Positions 13,881 to 44,991 of a DNA stretch of 47,510 nucleotides are shown here, piece after piece (positions within the stretch are counted from its first letter, which is position 1; every line of letters starts with the position of its first letter). The notes beneath the pieces were generated by a model. It made no database searches, was not told the origin of the DNA, and was given only the letters and a program-made list of their open reading frames with translations. Location of the stretch: positions 1 to 47,510 of the forward strand of contig CAYMTT010000002.1 in assembly GCA_964393465.1 (NCBI GenBank), in the 5' to 3' direction. Source of the DNA: an uncultured Candidatus Saccharibacteria bacterium (GTDB lineage: Bacteria; Patescibacteriota; Minisyncoccia; Minisyncoccales; MHMH01). Both the position numbers and the translations under genes were made by a program.

Positions 13881-13953
13881 GCCCCTATAACTCAATTGGC
13901 AGAGTAGCGGTCTCTTAAACCGTTAGTTCTAGGTTCGAATCCTAGTGGGGGCA
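13881..13953 (+). tRNA. tRNA-Lys (anticodon CUU), no encoded CCA
   Basis: Hand-folded 73-nt cloverleaf: acceptor GCCCCTA/TGGGGGC, D-arm ACTC-AATTGGCA-GAGT, anticodon loop CTCTTAA, T-arm CTAGG-TTCGAAT-CCTAG. It starts 4 nt after the pilin stop. Confidence 0.9.
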
Positions 13954-13954
13954 C

Positions 13955-21426: not shown

Positions 21427-22521
21427 TCAGTAAATATATCCTTTTATCAAAGGGTCCCCGACGGTCAATGTCCTATAATTCATCTTGCCCCAGCCAATGT
21501 AGTTCATTTCAGAAAACACCACTTTATTTCCTTTAACCTGCTCAACATAGCCTACGTGGCCGTAAAGCCTATGGCCTTCCAAAGAGATAACAGCTCCCGT
21601 CTGGGGGACGCAGTATCTTCCCGTGCAAGTGGAATAGCCCGCCGCCGCGGCGTTGGGGAGCCAGTCTTTGGCATTTCCCCAGGTAGGAACGGCTCTTTTC
21701 TGGGCCACCCACCAGGTGCACTGGCCGTAAGGGAAAGCGTGGCTTTTGCCGTAAAAATCGTTGGTGGAAAGACCCGACAGGGTTTCTGCAGTGGAAGATT
21801 GGCTTACAGAAGAATAAGAAGGCATTTGCCCTCCCGGTATAATCAATACTTCCCCTTCGAAAACGTCCCCGTTGCCGTTAATGTCATTGAAAGCGAATAC
21901 GTCTTTCGCTTCCGCCTTGTATTCTTCAGCTATAGTGCTAACTGTATCTCCCGATTCCACCAGATGCATGACTCCCGAGACGGGAAGTATAAGGAGTTTC
22001 TGACCCGGCCTTATCAAGGCGCTGTCAACGTCATTGGCCCAAATAATAGTGTCTATGGACACTCCGAATTCTACGGCTATGGACCATAAACTGTCTCCCT
22101 TTTTTATCTCATACTCTATAATCTCCCTTCTGGCCCCTTCAAAATCGGAACCTTCCATTAAAGCTCCCAGAACCTGGGGAGTGGCCATAATTGGAGGAGA
22201 AACCGAAGCCAAACTGTTATTTTGAACCAGACAAAGGTCGGGAGATTCCTTCACTTTGTCTTCCGGGAAAAGAAAAACCCTGCCTTGGCTGTCGGGGGTT
22301 TCGTAAAAAACGCTGTTGAAGTTTTCAGACGGCGCCGTACAAGCTGTCAGAAAAAAAAGAACGAGGGACGCCGCCCACAAATAAAGGAAGGGATCTTTTT
22401 TAGAGCCCTTTAAATGTTTCCATGCCTTGTAAATGGTATCTGGCAAGCTTTCCATAATTTTTTGCCCTTTTTTCAGGATATCACCGCCACCTTTAAAGTC
22501 AAGCGGTTTTTCCACACCCAC
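21427..22521 (-). CDS. secreted peptidoglycan hydrolase: two LysM domains plus a C-terminal CHAP domain (364 aa)
   Basis: LysM repeats (YEIKKGDSLWSIAVEFGVSIDTIIWAN; HLVESGDTVSTIAEEYKAEAKDVFAFN). CHAP Cys/His context (FPYGQCTWWVAQKR...GHVGYVEQV). The N-terminal TM/lipobox-like segment LFFLTAC suggests a possible alternative start at Met23 (22455). Confidence 0.85.
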   Translation of the reverse strand: MGVEKPLDFKGGGDILKKGQKIMESLPDTIYKAWKHLKGSKKDPFLYLWAASLVLFFLTACTAPSENFNSVFYETPDSQGRVFLFPEDKVKESPDLCLVQNNSLASVSPPIMATPQVLGALMEGSDFEGARREIIEYEIKKGDSLWSIAVEFGVSIDTIIWANDVDSALIRPGQKLLILPVSGVMHLVESGDTVSTIAEEYKAEAKDVFAFNDINGNGDVFEGEVLIIPGGQMPSYSSVSQSSTAETLSGLSTNDFYGKSHAFPYGQCTWWVAQKRAVPTWGNAKDWLPNAAAAGYSTCTGRYCVPQTGAVISLEGHRLYGHVGYVEQVKGNKVVFSEMNYIGWGKMNYRTLTVGDPLIKGYIY

Positions 22522-23376: not shown

Positions 23377-24753
23377 ATGGGCAAATCTTTTAAAAAAATA
23401 TTCCTCGGTTCGGCCAGAAAAATCATACTGCTTTTCTTCGGCCTGGGAGTTTCCGGAATCCTCCTTCTGCCCCAGCCGGCTTCCGCTCAGCTTTGGGACA
23501 AATTGCTGGGAGGCCTAACTTTCGTTCCCAACAACATCATAAATGTTTTCTTCCAGTTCGTTCTTTTGTTTTCTGCTGCTGCGGCCGCTCTGGCTGGAGC
23601 CATTTTGAAATGGGTCCTCAGCCCGGGATTCATCAGCTGGGGATATGTTGATAACAATCCGGTGGTCCAGATAGGCCTTGGCATCACCAAAAGTTTTGTC
23701 AATATGGGCCTAGTGCTCGTTTTAATATTCATAGCTTTCGGAATAATCCTGAGGCTGAAAGAATACGAAGCCAAAAAAACCCTGTCCACCTTGATAATCG
23801 TAGCTCTTTTGGTCAACTTCGCCCCGGTCATCTGCGGGTTCATAGTGGACGCTTCCAACATCGCCATGTATTACTTTACCGATAATCTGACCGGAATGCA
23901 GAATTTGACCGACCATCTAAAAAGCATGTCAGACAACATAGCCGCCAGCATAAGGACATTAAGGGCGACTGAACAGTTTGAAGAAATTTTCAGTACGGGA
24001 GTAATGATTGCTTTTACCTGGGCCACTTTCTTCATACTTATCATTTACGCCTTTTTGTTCCTTTTCAGGTATGTTGCCATTTGGACGGCCGTTATCCTGG
24101 CCCCTCTGGCTTTCGTTTCCCGCATTCTGCCTTCAACCAGTTTCTGGAATACTTGGTGGCGGCAGTTTACCCAGTGGTGCATAATAGGGATTCCGGCAGC
24201 CTTCTTTTTGTACCTGGGAGAAAGAATAGCCTCGGACCTGGCCCCGACGGCGCTAATCGAAGGCATGGGAGCAGAATACGGCTGGATGGACTCCATTCTG
24301 CCTCATTTTGTCACTCTGGCTTTTTTGATAATGGGGTTAATGGTCGCTTTCAGCACCAGCGCCTGGGGAGCCGGAAGAATCATGGAAGGGGGCAGAAAGA
24401 TAGGAAGGAATGGTCCCGCGTTTATATTTAAAACAGCTCCCAGGATTGCTAAAAAAGCTCCCAGGATTGCGTCCGGAATATCCAGAATAACCAAACCCTC
24501 TGAAACAAGCTACAAGCAAACTTACAAACAGGCTTACCAAGCAGCCAGACAAAGAGGATGGTCGAAAAGAAAAGCTACTATAGGAGCGACTAAAAAAACG
24601 GGGCAATCTTTCGCAAGAACCGCAAGAACAGTTGCTCCGCAGCCGCCGCCCCAGGGATATAAAAAATTTGTTTTGCAAGGACTTGATAAAGCTTGGAAAA
24701 CAACTTGGGATACTGTTGTCGTGCCCCCAAAAAAGAAAAATAAAAAAACCTAA
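23377..24753 (+). CDS. polytopic membrane protein, VirB6/TrbL-like by topology and context (458 aa)
   Basis: First gene of the secretion operon. It has a signal-like N-terminus (..PQPASAQ), at least 6 hydrophobic helices and a K/R-rich C-terminal tail. The family call is contextual and not motif-proven. Confidence 0.55.
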   Translation: MGKSFKKIFLGSARKIILLFFGLGVSGILLLPQPASAQLWDKLLGGLTFVPNNIINVFFQFVLLFSAAAAALAGAILKWVLSPGFISWGYVDNNPVVQIGLGITKSFVNMGLVLVLIFIAFGIILRLKEYEAKKTLSTLIIVALLVNFAPVICGFIVDASNIAMYYFTDNLTGMQNLTDHLKSMSDNIAASIRTLRATEQFEEIFSTGVMIAFTWATFFILIIYAFLFLFRYVAIWTAVILAPLAFVSRILPSTSFWNTWWRQFTQWCIIGIPAAFFLYLGERIASDLAPTALIEGMGAEYGWMDSILPHFVTLAFLIMGLMVAFSTSAWGAGRIMEGGRKIGRNGPAFIFKTAPRIAKKAPRIASGISRITKPSETSYKQTYKQAYQAARQRGWSKRKATIGATKKTGQSFARTARTVAPQPPPQGYKKFVLQGLDKAWKTTWDTVVVPPKKKNKKT

Positions 24754-24757: not shown

Positions 24758-25189
24758 ATGATTCAAAACCCCGAAATAAACGAAATTAAAAAATCTCTTT
24801 TGGGCAAGGTTCCAGAACCCGTCCTGGAATTGGCGGGATCGGAAGAAACGGCCTCCCAAATAGCTCAGATCTGCTCTGACAATGAAGTGGAAAGTAAAGA
24901 AGAGATAGAACAAACCGCCCTTCAAATAGGATTGGTGCTTTTGGGAAAACTGAATCCAGAAAAGTTGACCGACGCCTTGAAAAAAGAGGCGGATTTGGAT
25001 CCCCAGACCGCAGAAAGGGTTTACCTTGAAGTAAACAGGCTGATTTTCTCCCAAGTAAGGGGGGAATTGGCTAAAATGTACAAAAAAGAAGAAGAAGGCA
25101 AATCCAAGATAAGAAAGGACTCTCTTCCTCCGAAAGAAGAAACCCAAGGGTCGTCTAAAAACGACACTTACAGAGAACCTATCGAATAA
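24758..25189 (+). CDS. acidic soluble protein of unknown function (143 aa)
   Basis: Start set at MIQNPEINEIKK (ATG 24758, 4 nt after the upstream stop). The listed longer ORF would overlap the upstream gene. Confidence 0.6.
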   Translation: MIQNPEINEIKKSLLGKVPEPVLELAGSEETASQIAQICSDNEVESKEEIEQTALQIGLVLLGKLNPEKLTDALKKEADLDPQTAERVYLEVNRLIFSQVRGELAKMYKKEEEGKSKIRKDSLPPKEETQGSSKNDTYREPIE

Positions 25190-25599
25190 TGGATAATTTT
25201 ACGGTTCCAAAGTTTATAGAAGAAAAACCCAAGGTGGTCGGACCTTTAACTTTCCGGCAGTTCCTTTTTGTGGGAACGGCGGCGGGCATCTGCTTGATAC
25301 TGTATTTTACCGTTCCCCTGCACATATTCCTGATCTGCGGCGTAATCCTTCTAACCGGTTCTTTCTTTCTGGCTTTCGGCAAGGTTAACGGAATACCCAT
25401 TATAATGGTGATAAAGAATTTTTTTGTTTTTCTTTCCGCTCCCAAAATTTATCTTTGGAAAAGAAAAGTGCTCCCTCCAAAATTCGTGGAGAAAGCCGCC
25501 AAACCCCCCGAAAAAGAAGATAAAAAAGATGTCCCCAGGATAGCGGAAAAAAGCCAATTAAGAGATCTTTCTACGAGAATTGAAACGGGAGTAAAATAA
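25189..25599 (+). CDS. PrgI/VirB3-like two-TM protein (136 aa)
   Basis: FTVPKFIEEKPKVVGPLTFRQFLFVG is followed by two TM helices, and the gene lies immediately upstream of VirB4-like genes. The ATG overlaps the upstream TAA (TAATG). Confidence 0.6.
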   Translation: MDNFTVPKFIEEKPKVVGPLTFRQFLFVGTAAGICLILYFTVPLHIFLICGVILLTGSFFLAFGKVNGIPIIMVIKNFFVFLSAPKIYLWKRKVLPPKFVEKAAKPPEKEDKKDVPRIAEKSQLRDLSTRIETGVK

Positions 25600-25603: not shown

Positions 25604-26242
25604 ATGAAACAACTAACCACACAATCTTTTCTGGAAATAGATCAAATAAGGGAAGGCGTCATCGTCTTGAAAGACAACTCCTTGAAAGGAGCGCTGATGG
25701 CTTCCTCTTTGAACTTCGCTTTGAAATCGGAAGAAGAGCAGACTGCCATAGTCTACCAATTCCAGAATTTCTTAAACTCTTTGGATTTCTCCTGCCAGGT
25801 GGTGATTCAGTCCAGAAAACTTAATATGACAGGATATCTGGAAAAACTGAAGGAGCTGGAAAACAAGCAGCAAAACGAGCTTCTGAAAATACAAACCAAA
25901 GAATACCACAATTTTATAAAAGAGCTGGTGGCCACGGGCGACATCATGAGCAAGTCTTTTTATGTGGTGGTTCCTTTTTACCCTCTCCAAACATGGAAAA
26001 AGGCTTCCAAAAATATATTCAAATCTTCCAAACAGCAAAAACTGACAGAGAACGATTTTCAAAGGGGAAAACAGCAGCTCTGGCAGAGAATGGAGTTCGT
26101 AGCCCTGGGCCTCAGGAGATGCGGCGTCCAGGGAGTGCCCTTGACCACCCCCGAATTGATAGAGCTTCTGTGGGGGCTCCACCATCCAAAAAGAGCCGAA
26201 GTGGGATATTATCCAGAGGTTCCTCCTGAATTATCAAGATAA
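25604..26242 (+). CDS. hypothetical protein resembling a free-standing VirB4 N-terminal domain (212 aa)
   Basis: Pattern FLEIDQIREGVIVLKDNSLKGALMASSLNFALKSEEEQTAIVYQFQNFLNSLDFSCQVVIQSRKLN parallels the N-region of the next gene (IAPSSIEIKSSWLKLGERFSKSFFIFSYPRYLNTAWFSPIINLDIPMDISLFIHP). Confidence 0.55.
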   Translation: MKQLTTQSFLEIDQIREGVIVLKDNSLKGALMASSLNFALKSEEEQTAIVYQFQNFLNSLDFSCQVVIQSRKLNMTGYLEKLKELENKQQNELLKIQTKEYHNFIKELVATGDIMSKSFYVVVPFYPLQTWKKASKNIFKSSKQQKLTENDFQRGKQQLWQRMEFVALGLRRCGVQGVPLTTPELIELLWGLHHPKRAEVGYYPEVPPELSR

Positions 26243-26251: not shown

Positions 26252-28045
26252 ATGAAACTTCCTTTTTTCGGCAAAAAAAAGAAAAAACCGCTTCCCGGAG
26301 ATCAGCTTTTCGAAGGGGAAGCCATGAGAGCGGCAGACATTATCGCCCCTTCTTCCATTGAAATTAAATCTTCCTGGCTCAAACTGGGAGAAAGGTTTTC
26401 AAAATCCTTTTTCATCTTCTCTTATCCCAGATATCTTAACACGGCCTGGTTTTCCCCTATAATCAATCTGGATATTCCCATGGATATTTCCCTGTTCATC
26501 CATCCAATAGAAGCGGGCTTGATTTTAAAGCAATTGAGAAGAAGGATAACCGAAATACAAGCAGAAATGATGGAAAGGGAAGAAAAGGGAATGATCAGGG
26601 ATCCGGCCTTGGAAACGGCCCACAACGACGTCGAAGAACTCAGAGACAGATTGCAAACCGCCCAGGAAAGAATGTTCAAAATAGGAATATATCTAACGGT
26701 ATACGCCGACACCGAAAAAGAGCTCGACAATATGGAAAACACCCTCCGCTCGATTCTGGAGGCCAAGCTGATCTATATAAAGCCGGCTCTCTACCAGCAG
26801 AAAGAGGGATTCATATCCACTTCTCCCTACTGCATGGATCAGCTGGGAGTTCACGCTTCCATGAACACCGGGCCCTTGTCCTCCACTTTTCCTTTTGTGT
26901 CTTTTGATTTAAGCTCCAACGAAGGCATACTTTACGGGGTCAACCAGCATAACAACTCTTTGGTTCTTTTTGACAGATTCAGTCTGGAAAACGCCAATAT
27001 GACCGTTTTCGGGGTGGCCGGATCCGGCAAAAGCTACGCCTTGAAACTGGAAATACTGCGCTCCCTGATGCTGGGAACAGACACTGTAATTGTCGACCCG
27101 GAAAACGAATATAAGTTTTTGTCCGACGCCGTGGGCGGCTCTTTTTTCAAAATATCTCTGGGCAGCCCCAGCCATATCAACCCTTTTGATTTGCCTATCC
27201 CCAGAGAGGATGAAAAAGCGGAAGACGTTTTGAGGTCGAACATAATAAACCTGGTGGGCTTAATGAGGCTCATGCTGGGAGGGCTGACCGCAGAAGAAGA
27301 CGCCATTATGGACAGAGCGCTGACCGAAACCTATGCTGCCAAAGACATTACTCCCGAATCCGACTTTTCCAAAGTGAGCCCTCCTTTGATGTCCGACTTG
27401 GAATCGGTTCTGAACACCATGGAAGGGGCCGAATCCCTGGTCAGAAGAGTAAGAAAATTCACCAAGGGGAGCTATGCCAACTTTTTCAACCAGCATTCCA
27501 ACGTAAACATGAAAAACAGCCTGGTGGTTTTCGGCATAAGGGATATGGAAGAAGGCCTAAGGCCCATAGCAATGTACATCATCACCCGCTACATTTGGAA
27601 CCAAATACGCTCCGAGCTCAAAAAGAGGATATTCGTGGTCGACGAAGCTTGGTGGCTGATGCATTCAGAAGACGGAGCCTCTTTCCTTTTCGGAATAGTC
27701 AAAAGGGCCAGAAAATACTGGCTGGGGGTCACCACCATCACCCAGGACGTCAACGACTTTATGAGATCCGACTACGGAAAACCGATAATCACAAACTCCG
27801 CGCTTTCTCTTTTAATGAAACAAAGCCCGGCGACCATAAACACCGTCCAGGAAACTTTCAATCTCACCGACTGGGAAAAAGACTTGCTTTTGGGATCTGC
27901 GGTGGGGGAGGGAGTGTTTTTTGCCGGCCAGAAGCATGTTTCGGTCAAGGTTACAGCTTCTTACACAGAAGACCAATTCATCACCACGGCCCCCGAAGAG
28001 GTGGCCAAAATTAAAAAAACGAGGAAAGAACAACCTTCCTCTTAA
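26252..28045 (+). CDS. VirB4/TraC/TrbE-family secretion ATPase (597 aa)
   Basis: Walker A GVAGSGKSYALK, Walker B RIFVVDEAWWLM, and the downstream motif GVTTITQDVNDF. Confidence 0.85.
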   Translation: MKLPFFGKKKKKPLPGDQLFEGEAMRAADIIAPSSIEIKSSWLKLGERFSKSFFIFSYPRYLNTAWFSPIINLDIPMDISLFIHPIEAGLILKQLRRRITEIQAEMMEREEKGMIRDPALETAHNDVEELRDRLQTAQERMFKIGIYLTVYADTEKELDNMENTLRSILEAKLIYIKPALYQQKEGFISTSPYCMDQLGVHASMNTGPLSSTFPFVSFDLSSNEGILYGVNQHNNSLVLFDRFSLENANMTVFGVAGSGKSYALKLEILRSLMLGTDTVIVDPENEYKFLSDAVGGSFFKISLGSPSHINPFDLPIPREDEKAEDVLRSNIINLVGLMRLMLGGLTAEEDAIMDRALTETYAAKDITPESDFSKVSPPLMSDLESVLNTMEGAESLVRRVRKFTKGSYANFFNQHSNVNMKNSLVVFGIRDMEEGLRPIAMYIITRYIWNQIRSELKKRIFVVDEAWWLMHSEDGASFLFGIVKRARKYWLGVTTITQDVNDFMRSDYGKPIITNSALSLLMKQSPATINTVQETFNLTDWEKDLLLGSAVGEGVFFAGQKHVSVKVTASYTEDQFITTAPEEVAKIKKTRKEQPSS

Positions 28046-28051: not shown

Positions 28052-28453
28052 ATGGCCGAAGAAACCGGAGGAAACGCCAATTTATTAGGACCGGAAGCCG
28101 TTCTTATGCTCACTTTAGCCTGCATGATAGACGGAGGCGAACTGGTAATAGAGCATATTCCGGGAGTCGGACAGATAATCTCGGTGGCCCTGGATATTTT
28201 CGCTTTCCTGTTTTTCGGCGTTTGGATGGTTTTTAGAAATAGCAGTGGAATCCGGGTTCCGAGCCGAACCAAAGCCAAAGCCACCAAACTGGCAAAAAGA
28301 ATCAAATGGCTGAGGCCTTTCTTCTTTGGAACCAAAAAAATCAAATGGCTGAGGCCTCTCTGCTTCGGAATAGAACTGATTCCCATATTCAGCAGCTATC
28401 TGCCTTTTTGGATTTTGATCGTCTTTTTGGAATTAAAAAACACCGAAACTTAA
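28052..28453 (+). CDS. small membrane protein with an internal 13-aa duplication (133 aa)
   Basis: Listed ORF with hydrophobic helices. KRIKWLRPFFFGT / KKIKWLRPLCFGI is a tandem duplication. Confidence 0.6.
   Translation: MAEETGGNANLLGPEAVLMLTLACMIDGGELVIEHIPGVGQIISVALDIFAFLFFGVWMVFRNSSGIRVPSRTKAKATKLAKRIKWLRPFFFGTKKIKWLRPLCFGIELIPIFSSYLPFWILIVFLELKNTET
28301..28357 (+). repeat. 18-nt direct repeat at 39-nt spacing inside the CDS
   Basis: atcaaatggctgaggcct occurs at 28301-28318 and 28340-28357. Confidence 0.85.
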
Positions 28454-30493
28454 ATGATAAGATTGAAAGAAATCCGAAAACTCTTTCTGCCTCTGCTTAT
28501 TTTTTTCTTGCTGGCCGGGGCAGGTTCCGTTTTGGCTCAAAGAGATCTGGAAGTGGATTATCCCTCCCTGCCCGGCGTGGAAATGTCTCTGAATACCGTT
28601 GAAGGGACTTCTCTGCCAGACTACGTAAAATACATATTCAACTTCGCCATAGCTCTTGCCGGAATCGCCGCCCTGGTCGCTTTGGTTATGGGAGGAATGA
28701 AATATCTTACCTCTGCCGGGGATCCTGCCAAAATGCAAGAGGCCAAAAGTCGAATTCTGGCCGCTTTCCTGGGAATAATAATCCTTTTCAGCTCATATTT
28801 CATCTTCACCACCATAAATCCAGAGCTGGTGGTTTTCGAGGTATCCGGACTGCCCGATATAAGCATTATAGAAAAATACGTGCCCTTTGAACTTCCATCT
28901 ATAAACACCTCTTTTAATGTTGAAATACCGGTGGAAACCAGGTTCAAGGGCATAGAAGAACAGGATTTTGGAGTTTTCGAGCCCAACCGCCTGGAAAAAA
29001 TCAGAGATTTTTCCATTGCGGCTGAAGAAACGGCCATAGAAACCAAAGGAATATCCAACGAACTGACAAGCCTCACTTTTCAATGCAAATGCAACTACGG
29101 ATGCAATCCTCCCGCCGGCTGCGTCCAACCTTTCTGTGAAGGAAATTGCGAATGGGTGTGTAATGAATATGGGGAAGAATGCGTTTGTGAAGGCTGCTGC
29201 GATGCGGTAAAAAAAGACACGAGTTCGGGAGCAGAAAACGGAGAGGAAAGCCAAGAAGGAGAAGTTCAAGGAGAGGTTAAGGGATGTTCCGGCGGCAGCT
29301 GTCCGATAGGCGAAGAGGAAGAGGAGGAGGAAGAAGAGGAGGAGGAAGAGGGAGGATATATGGTGGAATGCAGCAGCGACCCTTGTTGTTTGGTCAGGTC
29401 CCAAATGTCCAGCAAAATGGCAGAAAACAGAATCAAAGTTACTCAATTTGAAGAATTGATAAAACTTTTACACAGGGAAAGAACGGAAATGGAAATGGAG
29501 GCTGACCGCCTGGAAAAAGCCATGGAAATAATGCAAGAATGCCCCATTTATGGAGTCTTGAGCAGGGATAACTTCATCAGCTTGAAAGATTATTACGATC
29601 AGCACAATTGGATACTGAAAAAAATCATATACTGGGAAGAAATTCCTTATCTTTTGCCGGGTTCTTACGCCGATGTTTATTGTCCGGTGGGCGGCAATAT
29701 TTCCGAATATGTTCCAGAAAACGAAGTTACAGAAGAAACTTTAGACGAGTCCACTGAAGAATTCCAAAAATACCTGGAAGAAGGCGGAGGCTACGAAGAA
29801 GTAACCGTGGATTGCAATATACCCATACCCTTCGGGGAAGTGGTTGATTTCGGGCTCAAGGTGGCTTATGAATTCATAGAACTGGTCAAAGAACTCATAG
29901 AATTGCAAACGGAAATGATAGAAACTGTAGCCCAACTGCACGAGGCCGTTTCCGGGTGCACCTCGATGAACTGCACGGCTGAATGCGGTTGCACTCTATG
30001 TGAAGAATGCGGATGCGGAGGATTTTGCACGGGAACTCCCTGCCCCACATCGGAAATTCTTAAGGCCAACGATAAAATAGAAAAATTACAAGAACAAATA
30101 ACAGAAAAAAGAGAAGAAATAGAGGAATACATAGACGTGGAAATACCAGATTATCTTGAAGGGCCATTTACCGAAATGGCCAACAGATTCCATAATTGCC
30201 AAGCGGAGCCCGAACAATTGGAGCCCGGATATCTTTTGATGGACTGCCAACGGAGCATGGGAGGCATAGGGCCCGACGGCAAAGTCCTAGGAATTGAAGG
30301 AGGAACCCAAACCTGGGAAACCCAGGCCTGCAAATGCCAGGAATTTTCCTCTTGCAGAAGGGATTTCCACGACATTTTAGAAACTTATACCTTGGGGGGC
30401 TGCGACAATCCCACTACGGTGCTCGAATACAGATGTGAACATATAGAAAATTGCTACGAATACAATTTCTTTTGTTGCAGAATAAAAGATTAA
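28454..30493 (+). CDS. pilin-module fusion protein with two Cys-knot clusters, helical segments and a poly-Glu tract (679 aa)
   Basis: N-terminus: signal peptide, LEVDYPSLPG, LPDYVKYIFNF, helix, GGMKYLTSAGDPAKMQEAKSR, helix, TTINPELVVFE. C-terminus: CKCNYGCNPPAGCVQPFCEGNCEWVCNEYGEECVCEGCC and CTSMNCTAECGCTLCEECGCGGFCTGTPCP. Confidence 0.7.
   Translation: MIRLKEIRKLFLPLLIFFLLAGAGSVLAQRDLEVDYPSLPGVEMSLNTVEGTSLPDYVKYIFNFAIALAGIAALVALVMGGMKYLTSAGDPAKMQEAKSRILAAFLGIIILFSSYFIFTTINPELVVFEVSGLPDISIIEKYVPFELPSINTSFNVEIPVETRFKGIEEQDFGVFEPNRLEKIRDFSIAAEETAIETKGISNELTSLTFQCKCNYGCNPPAGCVQPFCEGNCEWVCNEYGEECVCEGCCDAVKKDTSSGAENGEESQEGEVQGEVKGCSGGSCPIGEEEEEEEEEEEEEGGYMVECSSDPCCLVRSQMSSKMAENRIKVTQFEELIKLLHRERTEMEMEADRLEKAMEIMQECPIYGVLSRDNFISLKDYYDQHNWILKKIIYWEEIPYLLPGSYADVYCPVGGNISEYVPENEVTEETLDESTEEFQKYLEEGGGYEEVTVDCNIPIPFGEVVDFGLKVAYEFIELVKELIELQTEMIETVAQLHEAVSGCTSMNCTAECGCTLCEECGCGGFCTGTPCPTSEILKANDKIEKLQEQITEKREEIEEYIDVEIPDYLEGPFTEMANRFHNCQAEPEQLEPGYLLMDCQRSMGGIGPDGKVLGIEGGTQTWETQACKCQEFSSCRRDFHDILETYTLGGCDNPTTVLEYRCEHIENCYEYNFFCCRIKD
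29312..29350 (+). repeat. GAR codon tract encoding 13 consecutive Glu
   Basis: gaagaggaagaggaggaggaagaagaggaggaggaagag, in frame within 28454-30493. Confidence 0.9.
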
Positions 30494-30494
30494 A

Positions 30495-31577
30495 ATGAAA
30501 GGCTTCAAATTAAAAATATTTTTGGGACTGATAATAACGATGCTCTTTTTCGCCTCGCCGATTTTCGGCCAGGAAAGACAATTGGAGCTCGATTATCCGG
30601 AAATAGAGGGTTTCTCTCCTCAAACTGTTTCCACCGGACTTCCAGACTATGTAAAATACCTGTTTAACTTCTCTTTGGGCATAGCCGCTTTGGTTTGTTT
30701 TATCGTTCTCGTTTATGCCGGCTTCCGCTGGGCGACTTCCATGGGAAATCCGGCAAAGAAACTCGATGCCAAAGACAGGGTTTTTTCCGCCTTCCTGGGG
30801 CTGACCATTTTGGTTTTTTCTTATTTGATTTTCACCACCATAAATCCAGAACTGGTTATTTTCGAAATGGCAGAGATAGAAAAAGTTCAAGAAGCCCCTC
30901 CTTCTCCTTCTCCGACAGAAAAAATGTCCATCGATCCTTTAACCAGAATCGTGAAACTGGCTCGCGATGTCAAGGGATCCGCTTATGATTTAAGCAAGGC
31001 CGGCTCCGTCCTTTATGGGGCGGTCGAAGCATGCAGCTGCGATTACGTGCGGTCTTTCTGCGACTGCGGAGGATTATCATGTATCCCCAGATTTTGTTAT
31101 GGGTATCCCTGTCTCGACAGAGACAGCATGGTGGAACATCAGAAAAAACTGGTGGAAATGATAGACCAAATTCTGTATTATAAAAACAGGGTGAACATTG
31201 AAAGGCAGCATATGGGCCCGGAGTTGGAAAGATTCCAGTTCTGGGGCACTTTGAACGAAAGCCAAAGCAGGGACCTTGTCGACAAAATGGAATCTTTGCC
31301 CGAAAAAATAATAGAAATGTCCAGAGCCGGCCAAAATCTTGTTTGGCTTCCCGAAACTTGCTCCGCTAGAAACTGCGATGCCGGCTGTACCCAAGAAAGT
31401 TGCCACGATACTCCCGGCTGCCGCTCCTTGGTTTGCACCGGAGAGAATCCTTGCAATCTTCACAAACCCTGCATGTCCGCCGAAGCGGGCGAAGATGAAA
31501 CCGACGTCGAATTTATGAAAAGAATGTACCAAGAGATATCCGATATTTGCGACGCCATAATTAACATTCTGGAATAA
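30495..31577 (+). CDS. pilin-module fusion protein with a Cys-rich C-terminal domain (360 aa)
   Basis: It has the same N-terminal module (LELDYPEIEG, LPDYVKYLFNF, GFRWATSMGNPAKKLDAKDR, TTINPELVIFE). C-terminus: CSCDYVRSFCDCGGLSCIPRFCYGYPC and CSARNCDAGCTQESCHDTPGCRSLVCTGENPC. Confidence 0.7.
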   Translation: MKGFKLKIFLGLIITMLFFASPIFGQERQLELDYPEIEGFSPQTVSTGLPDYVKYLFNFSLGIAALVCFIVLVYAGFRWATSMGNPAKKLDAKDRVFSAFLGLTILVFSYLIFTTINPELVIFEMAEIEKVQEAPPSPSPTEKMSIDPLTRIVKLARDVKGSAYDLSKAGSVLYGAVEACSCDYVRSFCDCGGLSCIPRFCYGYPCLDRDSMVEHQKKLVEMIDQILYYKNRVNIERQHMGPELERFQFWGTLNESQSRDLVDKMESLPEKIIEMSRAGQNLVWLPETCSARNCDAGCTQESCHDTPGCRSLVCTGENPCNLHKPCMSAEAGEDETDVEFMKRMYQEISDICDAIINILE

Positions 31578-31578
31578 T

Positions 31579-32625
31579 ATGCTTAAAAAAAGAATTTTAT
31601 CTATATTTTTTCTGGCCGGATTGCTGCTTTCTGCAAGCGGAGGTTTTTTATCGGCGCAAGACAGGCCCCTGGAGCTCGATTATCCGACCATACCCGGCGT
31701 AACCATCGTTCCAAAAAACGTTGAAGAGACCTCCTTGCCAGAATACATAGACTATATCTTCAATCTGGCTCTCTGGGTGGTGGGATTAATCGCTTTCGGA
31801 GCCCTGGTTTACGGAGGATTCAGATATATAACTTCCATGGGGAATCCGGCTTCGATGGGAGACGCCAAAAGCCAGATTTTCGCTGGAATTCTCGGTTTAA
31901 TAATTCTTGTGTCTTCTTATCTTGTCTTGACGACTATAAACCCTCAGCTTGTGGTTTTCGACGTGGAAGAAATACAAAATGTCTCCACCGTCGGACCGGG
32001 CGTCTGGCTCTGTAATGCCTCCATTGATAATATTGAAAGTTTTATGGAAAATCCAAACAACTTCGAGTCCGAAGAAAGAGAGCGCCTGACTCAATTGGTG
32101 CAAAATCATTGTTTCAGACCCTCGACCAAAACCTTGATTCCCGATCGTATAAAAAACGGCCTGGAAAAGGCCTATGTGGTGGGGGATTATGGGGCTGTCC
32201 TGCACGAGGGACCGGAACCTTTCAAAGGCGAATGCCAGGTTGTCGCCCAGAGCCAGTCGGTGGGAACTGCCAACTCGGTGACTCCTTTCCTTATAAACGA
32301 AACGGCTTTTGCTGGGAACGGGGTTACCTTATATGAAAACAGGGATTTTAATCTCGACGAGCCGGGAAAGGAAGCCAATTACACTTCCGACGCCAGCAGC
32401 GGCATGGAGCCCTGCCAGTCAATAAAAATAAACGAAGAAAACCAATGGGTAGCCGTAGCTTTCAAAGACAGGGGCTTCCAAGGAGAGTGTGAAGTTTTCG
32501 ACAGAAGTGATAGGGATTTAAACGACGATTACGTGGGCAGATTCTGCATCCCCGGTCTTGCTTTCTGGGAGAGGCAAACCTGCATATATTCTCTGAAGGT
32601 ATTTAAAGGGTTGCTCTTGGATTAA
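31579..32625 (+). CDS. pilin-module fusion protein with a different, possibly beta/gamma-crystallin-like C-terminal domain (348 aa)
   Basis: It has the same N-terminal module (LELDYPTIPG, LPEYIDYIFNL, GFRYITSMGNPASMGDAKSQ, TTINPQLVVFD). The C-terminus has repeated VTLYENRDFN / AVAFKDRGFQGECEVFDRSDRDL-type motifs. Confidence 0.7.
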   Translation: MLKKRILSIFFLAGLLLSASGGFLSAQDRPLELDYPTIPGVTIVPKNVEETSLPEYIDYIFNLALWVVGLIAFGALVYGGFRYITSMGNPASMGDAKSQIFAGILGLIILVSSYLVLTTINPQLVVFDVEEIQNVSTVGPGVWLCNASIDNIESFMENPNNFESEERERLTQLVQNHCFRPSTKTLIPDRIKNGLEKAYVVGDYGAVLHEGPEPFKGECQVVAQSQSVGTANSVTPFLINETAFAGNGVTLYENRDFNLDEPGKEANYTSDASSGMEPCQSIKINEENQWVAVAFKDRGFQGECEVFDRSDRDLNDDYVGRFCIPGLAFWERQTCIYSLKVFKGLLLD

Positions 32626-33786: not shown

Positions 33787-34129
33787 GGTTTTGAAGTAAT
33801 TGAGCTTTTTTAAGCAGTTTAATTAAAGTTTGTTCGGTTGTTTCAAAGTCTTTTTCGGCAGATTCCGGCCTGGCCACCAAAACGACGTCGTATCCTTTTT
33901 TTGTCCTTTTAAGCGCGCCCCTCAAGGCTTCCTGCAAGCGCCTTTTTATTTTGTTTCTTGTAACCGCTTTTTTGGCCGTTTTCTGGCTGACGACGAAACC
34001 GAAACGGCTTTCTTTGAGCCCGTTTTCGGCCATTTTCAAAAATAAAAAATCTTCCTTGAAATTTCTTCCTTTCTTGAAAACTTTTTCGAAATCTTTCTTT
34101 TTTCTCAGCCGATTGGCTTGAGCCAACAT
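33779..34129 (-). CDS. rnpA: ribonuclease P protein component (116 aa)
   Basis: LRKKKDFEKVFKKG, a basic RNR-like segment (KKAVTRNKIKRRL), and rpmH-rnpA synteny. Confidence 0.9.
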   Translation of the reverse strand: MLAQANRLRKKKDFEKVFKKGRNFKEDFLFLKMAENGLKESRFGFVVSQKTAKKAVTRNKIKRRLQEALRGALKRTKKGYDVVLVARPESAEKDFETTEQTLIKLLKKAQLLQNHD

Positions 34130-34132
34130 AAA

Positions 34133-34258
34133 TCAAACAGTTAACCTCTGCCTTTTTTTGCTTCTCCTCCGGTTCAAAACCTTGCTGTTTTTCCGGCGAG
34201 ATCTGAACCCGTGCACCTTCTTTCTTTTCCTTTTTTTGGGGTTATGTGTGAATGACAT
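34133..34258 (-). CDS. rpmH: 50S ribosomal protein bL34 (41 aa; not in the ORF track)
   Basis: Hand-translated: MSFTHNPKKRKRKKVHGFRSRRKNSKVLNRRRSKKRQRLTV. The KRKR..HGFR...RR..GR..L.V pattern is typical, and the stop is 3 nt before the rnpA ATG. Confidence 0.9.
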   Translation of the reverse strand: MSFTHNPKKRKRKKVHGFRSRRKNSKVLNRRRSKKRQRLTV

Positions 34259-34338
34259 ATGTTTAAATATTAACAATTTTTCCCCATTTTTTCAACACCT
34301 CTTTCTCTTTTCGGTTCATTTTGTTTTTATTTGACATG

Positions 34339-34347
34339 TGCTATAAT
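34339..34347 (+). promoter_or_regulatory. extended -10 promoter element for dnaA
   Basis: TGcTATAAT (34339-34347), 26 nt before the dnaA ATG. The -35 is weak. Confidence 0.45.
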
Positions 34348-34373
34348 AGCTCTTGTAACCAAAAAATTCTCGT

Positions 34374-35744
34374 ATGAACAAAGAAGAACTGTGGCAAGCG
34401 CTTCTTGCTCAAGTCCAATTGAATATCTCCAAAGCCAATTTCGCCACTTGGTTTAAAAACACGGAAATAATATCCAAAAAAGAGGGGCAGGTGATAATTT
34501 CTGTGCCGAATAATTTTTCCAAAGAATGGCTGGAAAACAAGTATAACAAGTCTATTTCCAAAATCCTCCACAGTTTGGACGACGATATAAAAGAGATTAA
34601 ATACTGCGTGGCTCAGCCGGGCGCCAGTCCTTCTTTTTCGTCAACGGCCACTTCGACCAAAAAAAGGTCTCAAAATCAAATTTTCTCCCAGCTAGAATTC
34701 CAAGAGTTTAAAATAGACAAAGAAACTAATTTAAACCCCCGCTATACTTTCGACAATTTCATAGTGGGGCCTTTTAATGAATTGCCCCATGCGGCCGCCT
34801 GGGCGATAGTAAAAAATCCCGGTTTCGTTTACAACCCCTTGTTTATATATGGAGGAGTCGGACTGGGAAAAACCCATCTTTTGCAGGCGATAGGAAACGG
34901 GGTCATTAAAAAATTCCCTCAAAAAAAGATAAAATACGTTTCTTCCGAAAAACTTATCTCGGGAATAGTAAATTCCATTCAAAACCGCAACATAGAAAAA
35001 CTAAAGTCTTTATACAAAGACACGGACGTTTTGATAGTAGACGACATTCAATTTTTAGCCGGCAAAGAAAAGACCCAAGAAGAATTCTTTCACATATTCA
35101 ACAACCTATACGACAAAAACAAACAAATAATTTTATCTTCTGACCGCTCTCCCAAAGCCATTTCTTCTTTAGAAGAAAGACTGAGATCTCGTTTCGAGGG
35201 AGGAATGATAGCCGACATCGGTTTTCCGGACGTAGAAACGAGAATAGCTATTTTAAACTCCAAATCTCAGGAAAAAAACATCAATCTTTCCGGTGAAATA
35301 ATAGAATATATAGCCAACAATATCCAGAGGAACATAAGAGAATTGGAAGGGGCTTTAAATAGAATAATAGCTTACCAGAGACTTAATAATTCCACTCCCT
35401 CCCTGGAAACCGTCAAAACTTTATTGAAAAACCTTGTTTTTTCTCCGAAAAACGTGGTTACCCCCGAAAAAATAATAAAATCTGTTGCGTTTTTTTACGA
35501 CATTAAAGAAAGGGATCTTTTGGACGTTTCCAGAAAAAAAGAGATAGTTAAACCTCGCCAGGTATCGATGTATCTTTTAAGGGAAGAATTAAAAAGCTCT
35601 TTTCCTTTTATTGGCAGAAAGTTCGGAGGAAAAGATCACACTACCGCCATTCACGCCTACAATAAAATTTCCAAAGGGGTGGATTCCGACGAAAATTTAA
35701 ACAAGGAAATAGAGTTGATAAAAGAACAGATAAGCCGTTTATAA
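34374..35744 (+). CDS. dnaA: chromosomal replication initiator DnaA (456 aa)
   Basis: Walker A GGVGLGKTHLL, Walker B VLIVDDIQFL, sensor/box VII regions, and the C-terminal DNA-binding helix ...GGKDHTTAIHAYNKI. Confidence 0.95.
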   Translation: MNKEELWQALLAQVQLNISKANFATWFKNTEIISKKEGQVIISVPNNFSKEWLENKYNKSISKILHSLDDDIKEIKYCVAQPGASPSFSSTATSTKKRSQNQIFSQLEFQEFKIDKETNLNPRYTFDNFIVGPFNELPHAAAWAIVKNPGFVYNPLFIYGGVGLGKTHLLQAIGNGVIKKFPQKKIKYVSSEKLISGIVNSIQNRNIEKLKSLYKDTDVLIVDDIQFLAGKEKTQEEFFHIFNNLYDKNKQIILSSDRSPKAISSLEERLRSRFEGGMIADIGFPDVETRIAILNSKSQEKNINLSGEIIEYIANNIQRNIRELEGALNRIIAYQRLNNSTPSLETVKTLLKNLVFSPKNVVTPEKIIKSVAFFYDIKERDLLDVSRKKEIVKPRQVSMYLLREELKSSFPFIGRKFGGKDHTTAIHAYNKISKGVDSDENLNKEIELIKEQISRL

Positions 35745-35885
35745 GTTGTTGATAAAAAAAAGACTGATTGTTTTTCTTTTTAATCCCAACTTTATCCAAT
35801 AATTATTAGAAGGTTTTAAACAGTTTTTTCCCCAATTCAATTAAAATAAAATAATTAATTATCCACAACAACAATAATAACAACT
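35745..35885. other. candidate oriC (dnaA-dnaN spacer)
   Basis: A very AT-rich 141-nt spacer with a perfect DnaA box TTATCCACA (35859-35867) and a 7/9 box TTATCCAAT (35792-35800). It has the classic rpmH/dnaA/dnaN context. Confidence 0.5.
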
Positions 35886-37016
35886 ATGAAATTAATAGTT
35901 TTAAAAGAAAATATAAATAAAGGTTTAAATATTGTTGGCAGAGTAACCGGAAAAAATTTAACTCTTCCGATTTTAAGTAATATTTTAATTTCCACTCAAA
36001 AAAATATTTTAAATCTTTCCGGAACAGATCTTGAAATAGGGATAAAATATTGGGTTTTGTGTAAAACCGAAAAAGAGGGAAAAATAACAATTCCCGCCAG
36101 AACCATATCGAATTTTATAAATCTTTTACCCGAAGAAAAAATAACCTTGGAAACTAAAAATCAGGATTTAATAATAAACTGTAAAAATAATAATACTAAA
36201 ATTAAAGGATTGGATGCGGAAGAATTTCCTATTATTCCAAAAACTGAAAATAAAGATTTTATAGAATTAAATTCTCAATTTTTTTGCCAAGGGCTTTCTC
36301 AGGTCGTTGATTTTTGCGCAATAAACCAAGCCCGTCCGGAATTGTCGGGAGTTTATTTTAGTTTTCAAAAAGATAAATTGAAAATAACAGCCACTGACAG
36401 TTTCAGGTTGGCAGAAAAAGTTTTAAAATTTGAACAAAAAACCAATAAAGAATTTTCATTTATACTCCCCCAAAAAACCGCCAGAGAGGTAGTTAATATT
36501 TTTTCCGAAAATGAAGGAAAGATAAAATTATATTATTCTTCCAATCAAGTTTTATTTGAGTCCCCGATAAAAGAATCTTCCTATCCGCAGGTCCAACTGG
36601 TTTCCCGTTTGATAGAGGGGGAATATCCCGATTATCAGGGAATAATTCCGGATAAACACGACGTTCAGGTGATTTTGAACAGGGAAGATTTTTTAAATCA
36701 AGTTAAAACTGCCAGTATTTTCAGTGGCAAAAGCAATGAAGTTAAAATTAAAACCAACCCCGAAAAAGGCGGAATAGAAATTCTTTCCCAAAATCCGGAG
36801 CTGGGAGAAAATAAAAATTTCTTATCCGGCCAAATAAACGGAGGAGATAAAAAAGAGTTAGAAACCTCTTTTAATTATAAATTCCTCTTGGAGGGACTGT
36901 CGAATATAAAAAGCCCGAAAATAGTTTTCGAGCTTAATAAAGAAGAAGGACCGGCAGTAGTCAAACCCGAAGGAGATCCCAATTATCTTTATATATTGAT
37001 GCCCATTAAGTCTTAG
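35886..37016 (+). CDS. dnaN: DNA polymerase III beta sliding clamp (376 aa)
   Basis: Follows dnaA. Three-domain clamp length, with the typical start MKLIVLKENINKGLNIV and ..ATDSFRLAEK. Confidence 0.93.
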   Translation: MKLIVLKENINKGLNIVGRVTGKNLTLPILSNILISTQKNILNLSGTDLEIGIKYWVLCKTEKEGKITIPARTISNFINLLPEEKITLETKNQDLIINCKNNNTKIKGLDAEEFPIIPKTENKDFIELNSQFFCQGLSQVVDFCAINQARPELSGVYFSFQKDKLKITATDSFRLAEKVLKFEQKTNKEFSFILPQKTAREVVNIFSENEGKIKLYYSSNQVLFESPIKESSYPQVQLVSRLIEGEYPDYQGIIPDKHDVQVILNREDFLNQVKTASIFSGKSNEVKIKTNPEKGGIEILSQNPELGENKNFLSGQINGGDKKELETSFNYKFLLEGLSNIKSPKIVFELNKEEGPAVVKPEGDPNYLYILMPIKS

Positions 37017-43540: not shown

Positions 43541-43702
43541 TTGTGCAGTAGGAACTTTTTATTAGGGAAAGTAGCTCTGAGGCTGGGGGGAGGAATTGCT
43601 TTTTGATTGGATGGTCCAGGTGATGCTGAACCAATCCTCGAAGTAATTCTAAACTTTATGTTCCCAAGCTAGAGTATGCACCCCCAGCCTTAGCGTTATT
43701 TT
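43541..43702 (+). ncRNA. structured intergenic element (~160 nt), strand and class unresolved
   Basis: A 13-bp long-range helix joins 43577-43589 with 43681-43693 (including one G:U that is valid only in + strand RNA) and is followed by UUAUUUU. There are internal competing helices around GAUUGG/CCAAUC. Confidence 0.35.
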
Positions 43703-44991
43703 CCCGTCATTCTTTCTACTTCTTCCACGGTGGTTACGCCTTGCAGGATTTTTATGAATCCGTCCTGCTTCATTAAAACCATTCCTTTTTTAACGGCCAT
43801 TTTTCTCAAAACAGCTATGGAAGGAGACGTCAGGATGAATTTTTCCATTTCTTCATCCACGGGAAATCCTTCAAAAATTCCTATCCTTCCCTTGTAACCG
43901 GTATGGTTGCATTCAGGGCATCCCTTAGCTTTGGGGATTTTTATTTTATCGGTTATTTTCGGAGTTTTAACTCCTTTGGGAAGGCCCTTCAAAGCATTTT
44001 TAATCTTTTTCAATTCTTCAGGAGATGGTTTTTCCATTTTTCCGCATTTTGGGCAGATTTGTCTCACCAGTCTTTGGGCGATAGCCAGGTTTATGGCCGG
44101 ACCTATATTTGAAGGATCGGCTCCCAAGCTGATCAGCCTGGCTATGGTTCCCGCCGCATCGTTGGTGTGCAGGGTGGTTAAAACCAGATGCCCGGTTAAT
44201 GCCGCCTGCAAGGCTATCTTGGCGGTTTCCAGATTTCTTATTTCTCCCACCAATATGACGTCTGGGTCTTGGCGCATTATCGACTGGAGTCCGTTGGCAA
44301 AATCATATCCTTTGGAAGGATTGACCTGAGTTTGCGATATTCCTTTCAAATGATATTCGATGGGGTCTTCAATGGTTATTATTTTTATTTCTCTCCTTTG
44401 GATTTTCTTCAAAAAAGCGTAAAGGGTCGTAGTTTTACCCGAACCCGTAGGACCTGTAACTATAACCATGCCGTTCGGTTTTTTTATTTCCTTGCGGAAG
44501 TCTTTGAGAAGATCCTGCCTCAGGCCCAGCTTTTCCATCTCAATCAAAGTTTTGGGATTCAAAATTCTCATAACCACCGTTTCTCCGTGTTCTGCCGGAA
44601 GGGCTGAAGATCTGATCTCCACCTCCATTTTATTCAGAACGATCGAAAATCTGCCGTCTTGGGGCCGATCGGAAACATTCAGTTTCATTTCGGAAAGCAG
44701 CTTTATCCTCGAAAGCAGAGATCGGTAAAGCGGCAAGGGGATTGAGGTCACGTCCTGCAAAATCCCGTCCATTCTCAGTCTTAAAAGAGCCTGTTTTTCT
44801 CTGGGTTCTATGTGGAGGTCTGAAGCTTCCGAAAGGAAAGCCGATCCCAGAAGAAGTTCCAAAAGCTGGGTGGTTTTTTTATCAGCGGAGTTCCCTATTT
44901 GTTTTTTCAGATCGGGTATGTTGGAGGATTTTTTTTGCAGTTCGGAAAGCCTGGCTTGGGAAATCTGGATTTTTCCGGTGATATTTTTCAT
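43696..44991 (-). CDS. GspE/PilB-family type II/IV secretion (pilus assembly) ATPase, short N-terminus (431 aa)
   Basis: ASDLHIEP, Walker A GPTGSGKTTTLY, Asp box TIEDPIEY, Walker B DPDVILVGEIR, His box TGHLVLTTLHTN, and the tetra-Cys motif CPKC...CPEC typical of PilB/GspE rather than PilT. Confidence 0.88.
   Translation of the reverse strand: MKNITGKIQISQARLSELQKKSSNIPDLKKQIGNSADKKTTQLLELLLGSAFLSEASDLHIEPREKQALLRLRMDGILQDVTSIPLPLYRSLLSRIKLLSEMKLNVSDRPQDGRFSIVLNKMEVEIRSSALPAEHGETVVMRILNPKTLIEMEKLGLRQDLLKDFRKEIKKPNGMVIVTGPTGSGKTTTLYAFLKKIQRREIKIITIEDPIEYHLKGISQTQVNPSKGYDFANGLQSIMRQDPDVILVGEIRNLETAKIALQAALTGHLVLTTLHTNDAAGTIARLISLGADPSNIGPAINLAIAQRLVRQICPKCGKMEKPSPEELKKIKNALKGLPKGVKTPKITDKIKIPKAKGCPECNHTGYKGRIGIFEGFPVDEEMEKFILTSPSIAVLRKMAVKKGMVLMKQDGFIKILQGVTTVEEVERMTGK

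Follow-up and report, generated by a model that had tools for sequence, protein, structure and literature searches.

The locus analysed here raises the question of what kind of proteins are encoded by three tandem genes that lie beside a type IV secretion system (T4SS) gene cluster in an uncultured Candidatus Saccharibacteria bacterium (Patescibacteriota; contig CAYMTT010000002.1 of assembly GCA_964393465.1), from which a stretch of 47,510 nucleotides (nt), hereafter the window, was analysed. The genes, named here P1 (28454..30493), P2 (30495..31577) and P3 (31579..32625), code for proteins of 679, 360 and 348 amino acids (aa) with 38, 17 and 7 Cys, respectively, and all lie on the + strand; the coordinates and lengths given for them in an initial annotation, made from the sequence alone, were exact. 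That annotation described the three proteins as a VirB2-like pilin module fused to unrelated, Cys-rich C-terminal domains located outside the cell, and the array as a modular display cassette of an unrecognised kind. On the best reading of the evidence presented below, P1–P3 belong to the T4SS either as modular pilins in minor or tip positions or as stalk components docked to it. Their architecture, their association with the T4SS and their extracellular location are considered highly probable, and the chance that they are incorporated at or on a pilus as modular pilins is judged to be about even.

Each protein begins with a predicted signal peptide and a pilin hairpin. In P1, the signal peptide (aa 1–29) is followed by a VirB2-like pilin hairpin (aa 30–128, nt 28541–28837) and by an exported C-region (aa 129–679); in P2, the signal peptide (aa 1–25) and the hairpin (aa 26–123, nt 30570–30863) lead into a Pro-rich linker, and in P3 the same elements occupy aa 1–27 and aa 28–127 (nt 31660–31959). 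When the N-terminal modules were aligned, they were 47–51% identical over ~125–135 aa, with 42 invariant columns that include the motifs R.LE.DYP, LP(D/E)Y..Y.FN, TS.G.P..AK and TTINP.LV.F, so that the common module and the motifs listed for it in the initial annotation were recovered. A profile of the module, built from 229 related modules, scored P1–P3 at E 1e-48 to 1e-53. At the DNA level, the 20-mer TTCACCACCATAAATCCAGA previously noted at 28805–28824 and 30831–30850 was present at both positions and at no other site in the window, with 0 occurrences expected from shuffled sequences; it sits within a conserved 47-nt stretch that codes for TTINPxLV in P1, P2 and P3. Beyond this junction P3 could not be aligned to P1 or P2. 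The C-terminal domains of the three proteins span 220–550 aa.

The identity of the module as a T4SS pilin was assessed with protein families and with the other pilin-like gene of the window. All three proteins passed the gathering cutoff (26.6 bits) of the Pfam family PF18895 (T4SS_pilin), with 37.8 bits for P1, 29.7 for P2 and 37.2 for P3, and also gave weak, sub-threshold matches to NF045849, an NCBIfam model from a Mycoplasma integrative and conjugative element that is named 'Mbov_0395 family pilin-like conjugal transfer protein'. A search of the open reading frames (ORFs) of the window with the module profile returned exactly four matches, P1–P3 and a stand-alone VirB2-like pilin, P0 (13482..13877, + strand), a protein of 131 aa in which the exported N-terminal part contains 4 Cys. 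P0 was matched over the full module length (E 2e-11), which answers the comparison with this ORF that the initial annotation had proposed; with the three N-terminal modules only, the hhalign alignment to P0 alone was weak (64% probability over 33 columns), and the deeper profile was required. P0 passed both PF18895 (31.2 bits) and the TrbC/VirB2 family PF04956 (29.6 bits, with a cutoff of 27.9), and is a candidate for the major subunit of a filament. Its gene is flanked by tRNA-Arg (13334–13407) and tRNA-Lys (13881–13954), about 10 kb off the T4SS operon. The PF18895 matches, the weak NF045849 matches and the full-length alignment with P0 uphold the assignment of a VirB2-like pilin module, and on sequence the tie of P1–P3 to classical VirB2 is one of family relationship and architecture, with no direct similarity.

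Three hydrophobic segments were found in each of P1–P3. The N-termini are of the ordinary Sec type, with a basic n-region (charge +3), an h-region and A or G at position −1, followed by an acidic exported segment (−4 or −5) and by the two helices, which in the AlphaFold2 (AF2) model of P3 form a hairpin of aa 55–85 and 90–119. The inter-helix loop is short, with a net charge of 0 to +2 and K/R at its edges, and the C-regions are acidic (net −16 to −79, isoelectric points of 4.2–4.7) and hold nearly all the Cys. Among relatives with tandem modules, an even number of helices per module is kept. The charge pattern, the hydrophobic segments and the Cys content point to an N-out/C-out topology; because of the charge distribution and the Cys content, the C-domains are placed outside the cell, in agreement with the initial annotation.

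The C-region of P1 consists of a linker, a helix (aa 177–209), a variable Cys knot 1 (aa 210–311), a second helix (aa 312–362), an insert domain (aa 363–459), a third helix (aa 460–500), Cys knot 2 (aa 501–531), a fourth helix (aa 532–582) and a C-terminal Cys-rich domain (aa 583–679). The two Cys clusters and the tract of 13 Glu reported for this protein were both found; the tract, a run of exactly 13 Glu at aa 287–299 within knot 1, is a feature of this window only and is missing from all orthologs. In the AF2 model of P1 the four long helices reached a predicted local distance difference test (pLDDT) of 90–97, with one Cys cluster falling between the first and second helix and the other between the third and fourth. 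When this model, with a mean pLDDT of 53, was searched with Foldseek against the PDB, no match at E ≤ 0.001 was obtained, and only BAR-domain, V-ATPase-stalk and axonemal coiled coils appeared. Pfam and NCBIfam gave nothing usable for the C-domains of P1–P3.

The C-regions of P1 and P2 are homologous (hhalign probability 99.4%, E 2e-21); missing from P2 are the insert and the C-terminal Cys-rich domain of P1, each of ~100 aa. The label 'unrelated' that the initial annotation had given to the C-domains thus fails for P1 and P2 and holds for P3, which is unalignable to either, and its description of P2 as a shorter version of the knot-helix-knot plan of P1 agrees with the homology found. Within the P2 C-region, homology was also found between the two halves (hhalign 95.8%, E 7e-9); therefore, the unit is a helix-Cys knot-helix hairpin that occurs twice in P2, at about aa 138–250 and aa 251–360. 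Nine full-length homologs of P1 were found, with 25–49% identity. Among its orthologs, conservation is highest in the membrane hairpin (59% pairwise identity and a fixed length of 65 aa), and knot 1 varies most (25% identity, 53–118 aa, 11–21 Cys). From the even Cys count and the extracellular location we infer that the knots are disulfide-bonded; the helices of P1 and P2 would form an elongated stalk with the knots at its distal end.

The cargo of P3 (aa ~138–348, nt 31990–32622, + strand) was modelled as a two-domain beta/gamma-crystallin fold with a helical insert at aa 152–177. The AF2 model, built from a 25-sequence alignment, had a mean pLDDT of 83.5, with the C-domain mostly above 90, and in the Foldseek search against the PDB the top 34 matches were all beta/gamma-crystallins, with probability 1.00 and E down to 2e-5. 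The target-normalised template modelling score (TM-score) was 0.55–0.64 to well-superposed two-domain entries of gamma and beta-B3 lens crystallins and 0.67–0.76 to single microbial crystallin domains; other chains among the crystallin matches (beta-B2, mouse gamma-S octamer) superposed poorly, with TM-scores of 0.36–0.37 and a root-mean-square deviation of ~17 Å. A profile of the P3 family searched against PDB sequences ranked 3hzb (a Flavobacterium crystallin domain), spherulin 3a and protein S at the top, all weakly (best E 0.014). Therefore, the Greek-key guess made for P3 in the initial annotation is confirmed at the level of the predicted fold, by AF2 and Foldseek together.

No match of P3 to Pfam Crystall (PF00030) or Crystall_3 (PF08964) was obtained at E ≤ 1, whereas its family relatives P0033, P0039, P0058 and P0082 do carry one or the other, and some members carry Inhibitor_I36. 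When the family alignment was read by eye, the motifs LHE...F.G.C, LYE..DFN and F....F.G.CEVF were seen to be kept, with Ser positions in SS/SIK, and the canonical calcium motif N/D-N/D-x-x-S/T-S was not evident by the same reading, made without a formal motif scan. With only 7 Cys, about 6 of which are conserved, P3 is not especially Cys-rich, and in this respect its earlier label was wrong. P3 shares the double Greek-key fold with the microbial beta/gamma-crystallins (Protein S, spherulin 3a and the Flavobacterium and Clostridium single domains) and differs from them by the lack of a Pfam match, the helical insert in the first motif, the conserved Cys pairs and the fusion to a pilin hairpin.

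To follow the distribution of the module among other proteins, a profile was searched exhaustively against 1.84 billion representative sequences, which gave 48,503 matches at E ≤ 1e-3 and 310 at E ≤ 1e-30. The best 150 of these and homologues from other searches made up a set of 234 close relatives, ~94% of which are longer than 200 aa and carry the module at the N-terminus, with a median tail of ~290 aa and a median Cys content of 3.7% in the tail. When tails were sorted into families, 121–127 of 219 were of the P3 type and 72 of the 219 belonged to the P1/P2-type superfamily. In a Pfam survey of 94 representatives, the tails added SLT, SLT_3, Peptidase_C39_2, Peptidase_C70, NlpC/P60, Crystall and Dockerin domains, and precomputed annotations of relatives added Peptidase_M23. 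The survey of related genomes for the same module joined to other C-domains, as the initial annotation had advised, thus yielded M23, SLT, NlpC/P60, C39-like, crystallin and dockerin tails.

Thirty of the 234 close relatives are 'poly-pilins', in which 2–10 hairpins follow each other in one chain at a spacing of ~75–85 aa; examples are P0122 (10 hairpins in 1147 aa), P0113, P0114, P0121, P0109 and P0111. We know of no prior description of covalently linked pilin modules. Judged from these sequences, the pilin module is a widely reused N-terminal carrier for exported domains.

P1–P3 follow a series of T4SS genes on the same strand. The 133-aa gene that precedes them, P1, P2 and P3 are spaced 0–1 nt apart, as expected for a tight operon. 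That gene (28052..28453, + strand), the stop codon of which abuts the start of P1, codes for a membrane protein that has three hydrophobic segments but lacks a signal peptide; the protein had no Pfam or NCBIfam match, and in all the related loci examined the gene is kept at the same place, separating virB4 from the first pilin fusion. Within the gene, a 39-nt tandem repeat (28295–28331 and 28334–28370, 89% identity) encodes KRIKWLRPFFFGT and KKIKWLRPLCFG. Upstream lies a VirB4-like T4SS ATPase (26252..28045, + strand), which matches NF045971, the VirB4-like CD1110 family, with 374 bits over a cutoff of 325, and also P-loop_TraG and AAA_10, and which corresponds to the C-terminal ATPase part of a split VirB4. 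The equivalent of the VirB4 N-terminal domain is a TrsD/TraC-like protein (25604..26242, + strand) with weak NCBIfam matches to VirB4 N-terminal regions and to TrsD, the positional orthologs of which carry PF26593 (TraC-like). It is preceded by a PrgI (VirB3-like) membrane protein (25189..25599, + strand; PF12666, 34.4 bits) and by a polytopic membrane protein of 458 aa (23377..24753, + strand) with at least 6 hydrophobic segments, a VirB6/TrbL-like candidate. The latter has no Pfam match itself, its positional equivalent in the distant locus L008 matches PF19590 (TrbL_3), and it is presumed to be the platform for pilin assembly. A LysM-LysM-CHAP cell-wall hydrolase encoded on the opposite strand (21427..22521, − strand) is a possible VirB1-like partner; in locus L004, a LysM-M23 peptidase occupies the equivalent slot.

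Neither a relaxase nor a coupling protein was seen in the window, and no VirB5 or VirB8 homolog was recognised in the locus with Pfam or NCBIfam. On the 3' side of P3, jag, yidC and rnpA lie on the opposite strand and are followed by dnaA and dnaN; the remainder of the window consists of chromosomal housekeeping genes. The locus is a known type of Patescibacteria T4SS, origin-proximal, without relaxase and similar to the mating pair formation (MPF) class FATA, with an adjacent array of VirB2-like pilins, and the NCBI labels of relatives (Patescibacteria group, Parcubacteria, Nealsonbacteria) agree with this assignment. The GC content falls to 0.35–0.38 around dnaA/dnaN (34001–38000), compared to ~0.45–0.48 elsewhere in the window, which is consistent with an AT-rich replication origin region adjoining the T4SS operon.

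The conservation of the array was followed in other loci. The same order, PrgI, TraC-like, VirB4, the small transmembrane protein, the P1-, P2- and P3-type fusions and then jag-yidC-rnpA-dnaA, recurs in four other metagenome-derived loci (L001, L004, L005 and L006), with the P1 gene fragmented in L004. Between orthologs, the modules are 42–62% identical and the cargo 33–47%, with the exception of one two-module ortholog for which the global alignment was distorted. The P3 ortholog of L005 (10582–12075) has two hairpins ahead of the crystallin domain. Because the closest orthologs are ~45–55% identical in protein, synonymous sites are saturated. In the window, no reverse transcriptase and no template-like repeat of the C-domains, of the kind expected from hypervariation machinery, was found, and the repeats common to the P1–P3 genes are the conserved motifs of the N-terminal module only. 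A profile of the P1 C-domain searched in one genome per GTDB species returned 2 loci; as two narrow peptide patterns were used, no taxonomic range is implied by this number.

In two more distant loci, a Nealsonbacteria chromosome (L007) and L008, the locus is kept with its cargo swapped: slot 1 holds a pilin module, one helix-knot-helix unit and an M23 peptidase, slot 2 a helix-knot-helix protein without pilin module, and slot 3 a pilin module with a P3-type domain. As one helix-knot-helix unit joins the pilin module to the M23 peptidase in these loci, a stalk or spacer role fits this unit. The idea of a modular cassette is supported at the level of the phylum, where relatives bear many C-domains, rather than for this array. 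A cassette swapping fast within the clade is contradicted by the positional orthology of the same three genes in four other loci, with C-domains 33–47% identical, and P1–P3 are old, stable paralogs.

Two essential genes differ in size among the related loci: DnaA of L001 (10131–11999) is 622 aa long and includes HNH domains, and in L005 (3340–7146) the ORF for VirB4 reaches 1268 aa compared to 597 aa in the window, which suggests insertions of the intein or homing-endonuclease type.

Origin-proximal Patescibacteria T4SS with a tandem array of VirB2-like pilins near virB4 have already been described (Quinonero-Coronel et al. 2025, PMC12102498) and reviewed (PMC12857230), and the pilin array of the Southlakia T4SS is essential for epibiotic growth (Wang et al. 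2023, PMC10633639). P1–P3 resemble these arrays (PMC12102498, PMC10633639) in matching PF18895, in their tandem arrangement next to virB4/PrgI/TrsD and in their origin-proximal position; in contrast, the Southlakia pilin genes measure 384–435 bp, whereas every pilin in the present operon has 348–679 aa with a folded exported domain. The small size of hairpin-only pilins (about 100–190 aa) is not shared by P1–P3 (679, 360 and 348 aa). In the published census each PF18895 match is counted as VirB2, without a length column or mention of fusions (PMC12102498). What is new here is the presence of long, modular VirB2-like pilins in an already known T4SS locus.

In every conjugative pilus solved so far, the pilin loop faces the lumen and the N- and C-termini are both outside; VirB2 subunits are believed to leave the membrane and be assembled on a pentamer of VirB6, and the pili of diderms are often capped by a VirB5 pentamer (10.64898/2025.12.18.695078). 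PrgF(B2) of pCF10 and other VirB2-like pilins of Gram-positive bacteria are similar to P1–P3 in belonging to monoderm MPF-FATA-type T4SS, in having two helices joined by a charged cytoplasmic loop and in their proposed assembly on a VirB6-like pentamer (10.64898/2025.12.18.695078). Unlike P1–P3, PrgF is a bare hairpin without cargo, and fusions are unmentioned in that work (10.64898/2025.12.18.695078). The modular type IV pilins PilB and PilC of Streptococcus sanguinis (PMC8179133), in which a polymerisation module carries a C-terminal adhesive domain in a minor pilin, follow the design that is proposed here for P1–P3. They form a non-homologous filament and differ at the N-terminus, where prepilin peptidase processes a signal peptide of class III (G|FTLxE) ahead of one hydrophobic helix; neither element is found in P1–P3, which have a Sec signal and two helices and are encoded in a T4SS locus, not in a type IV pilus locus. 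The VirB5/TraC tip adhesins of diderm T4SS share the proposed distal role in host contact and an elongated helical architecture with an appended region, but VirB5 is a soluble periplasmic protein that is not fused to a pilin. No Pfam or NCBIfam match to VirB5/TraC was obtained for P1–P3, nor any Foldseek match of P1 at E ≤ 0.001, the latter search being limited by the quality of the model. In the literature covered, which is incomplete, no description of VirB2-type pilins with C-terminal domains was found, and this is absence of evidence only; fusion architectures are visible in public databases, some of them named simply 'pilin'. The cassette that the initial annotation did not recognise is not without precedent, since type IV pili are known to include modular pilins (PMC8179133) and tandem arrays have been published (PMC12102498, PMC10633639), although no fusion of the VirB2 type was found in the literature covered.

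In the explanation that we favour, P1–P3 would be conserved, operon-coupled parts of a chromosomal, origin-proximal, monoderm-type T4SS of Patescibacteria (the candidate phyla radiation, CPR), each of them a modular VirB2-like pilin. After removal of the Sec signal peptide, the two-helix hairpin (PF18895) would enter the cytoplasmic membrane with its short basic loop in the cytoplasm and both ends outward, and the acidic, Cys-bearing C-terminal module would fold extracellularly. P1 and P2 would provide stalks of repeated helix-Cys knot-helix hairpins, with the knots at the turns and presumably disulfide-bonded, and P3 would display a double beta/gamma-crystallin domain, a fold found in microbial surface and binding proteins. 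The hairpins would be taken up by the VirB4/VirB6-like machine like ordinary VirB2 subunits. As every solved conjugative pilus has the C-terminus on its outer surface, the cargo would be exposed there or at the tip, on a short pilus or stub for which P0 may provide the shaft. The cargo may then act as a host-contact complex, adhesive or cell-wall-engaging, in the role of the VirB5 tip adhesins of diderms.

Several points weigh against this explanation. P1–P3 did not reach the threshold of the TrbC/VirB2 family PF04956, for which P2 alone gave a sub-threshold match (E 0.14, 12.9 bits with a cutoff of 27.9), and the module profile retrieved no VirB2, TraA or TrbC chain from PDB sequences, the best matches being unrelated transmembrane hairpins at E ~0.4. 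The model of P1 is of low confidence outside the four helices and has no significant fold match, so that the stalk shape and the disulfides are inferred. No Patescibacteria T4SS has so far been seen to form a pilus, and what was learned from the essential Southlakia pilins, which are short (384–435-bp genes), may not transfer to fusions of 348–679 aa. P0, the sole candidate for a shaft subunit, is encoded ~10 kb away from the T4SS operon. Fixed structural parts would account for the deep conservation of the three genes as well as adhesins would. On a rough estimate from the dimensions of the F-pilus, a domain of 25–60 kDa on each subunit would crowd a VirB2-type helix, so that P1–P3 seem feasible in minor, tip or base positions only. 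As bulky homopolymers look sterically unlikely, minor or tip positions on a P0 shaft, or on a short stub, are favoured for P1–P3.

The bulk of the cargo also suits an arrangement in which P1–P3 do not polymerise and are membrane-anchored parts of the T4SS, the hairpin serving only to anchor them or to dock them on the VirB6-like platform, with no extended pilus. The stalks and crystallin domains would then form a fixed stalk or cap spanning the envelope, and in a monoderm machine they would be the functional counterparts of VirB5, VirB8/PrgL or VirB1. This possibility, to which we give appreciable but limited credence, is favoured by the strict positional orthology across distant genomes with cargo 33–47% identical, as expected for core parts rather than for variable adhesins, by the M23 peptidase (a VirB1-like activity) in slot 1 and the lack of a pilin module in slot 2 of L007 and L008, and by the failure to recognise VirB5 or VirB8 homologs in the locus. 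Against it, no segment is better conserved than the hairpin, in which the loop and the motifs of stand-alone pilins are retained, the 2–10 tandem hairpins of relatives suggest side-by-side packing as in a polymer, and the pilin arrays of these systems are thought to form a pilus (PMC12857230).

The fusion of the module to potential attackers of the host wall (M23, SLT, NlpC/P60 and C39-like proteases), and the invariant TTINP placed exactly at the boundary between module and cargo, would also fit exported effectors or toxins, in which a pilin-like carrier passes the C-domain on to the T4SS or the cell surface and is cleaved near TTINPxLV, so that the C-domains are released onto the host. Killer toxins and protease inhibitors are among the proteins with a beta/gamma-crystallin fold. 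This reading is nevertheless improbable: neither a cleavage site nor a partner protease was identified, export of the cargo is already provided by the Sec signal peptide, so that a T4SS step is unneeded, TTINPxLV is also present in stand-alone modules that carry no cargo, such as P0152 (130 aa), and the conserved, single-copy array of three genes looks structural. Still harder to credit are generic surface proteins with a two-helix anchor that have no relation to the T4SS and lie beside virB4 incidentally. The status of PF18895 as a pilin family comes from bioinformatics alone, and the module marginally matches unrelated transmembrane hairpins such as Htr2; yet the fusions come right after virB4 in every locus examined, distant ones included, P1–P3 are spaced as tightly as in an operon, and the module matches an independent NCBIfam model of a conjugation pilin-like protein.

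The modular-pilin reading could be extended beyond this array, tentatively and at rather long odds, to the VirB2-type hairpin as a general carrier in Patescibacteria, with thousands of families bearing stalks, lectin-like crystallins and hydrolases. From these parts the T4SS would build a composite tip or stub for binding and breaching the host envelope, P1–P3 would form this tip complex in place of VirB5, and the poly-pilins would be pre-assembled pilus layers. If true, these would be the first modular pilins for any T4SS and would give a concrete structural basis for the contact between episymbiont and host.

The fusion layout is widespread and apparently undescribed, and may explain how the parasitic, ultrasmall Patescibacteria touch their host cells. 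In the one system tested, epibiotic growth depends on the T4SS and its pilins. The operon pilins in a large lineage are not bare hairpins: they bear conserved, exported stalk or crystallin-fold domains and, in relatives, peptidoglycan hydrolases. The C-domains of P1–P3 are thus specific candidates for the host-contact surface, and such long fusions challenge the assumption of an always small VirB2 that is built into current searches and censuses.

Some further observations were made in the window. An ATPase of the T2SSE/PilB type (43696–44991, − strand) shows that the genome encodes a separate type IV pilus or type II secretion system machinery as well. Three large ORFs had no Pfam match, at 18154–20658 (+ strand, 834 aa), 5815–6960 (− strand, 381 aa) and 44995–46104 (− strand, 369 aa), the first of them lying between the genes for polynucleotide phosphorylase and a DksA-like protein and having one hydrophobic segment near aa 599–628. 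A tRNA-Pro gene (11723–11793) was found inside the 5' end of a listed GTG-initiated ORF of 500 aa (10305–11807, − strand); therefore, the true start of this protein, which is similar to fn3 and purple-acid-phosphatase N-terminal domains, must be located further downstream. The same ORF contains an internal direct repeat of 173 nt (11050–11222 and 11392–11564), the two copies of which are 73% identical.

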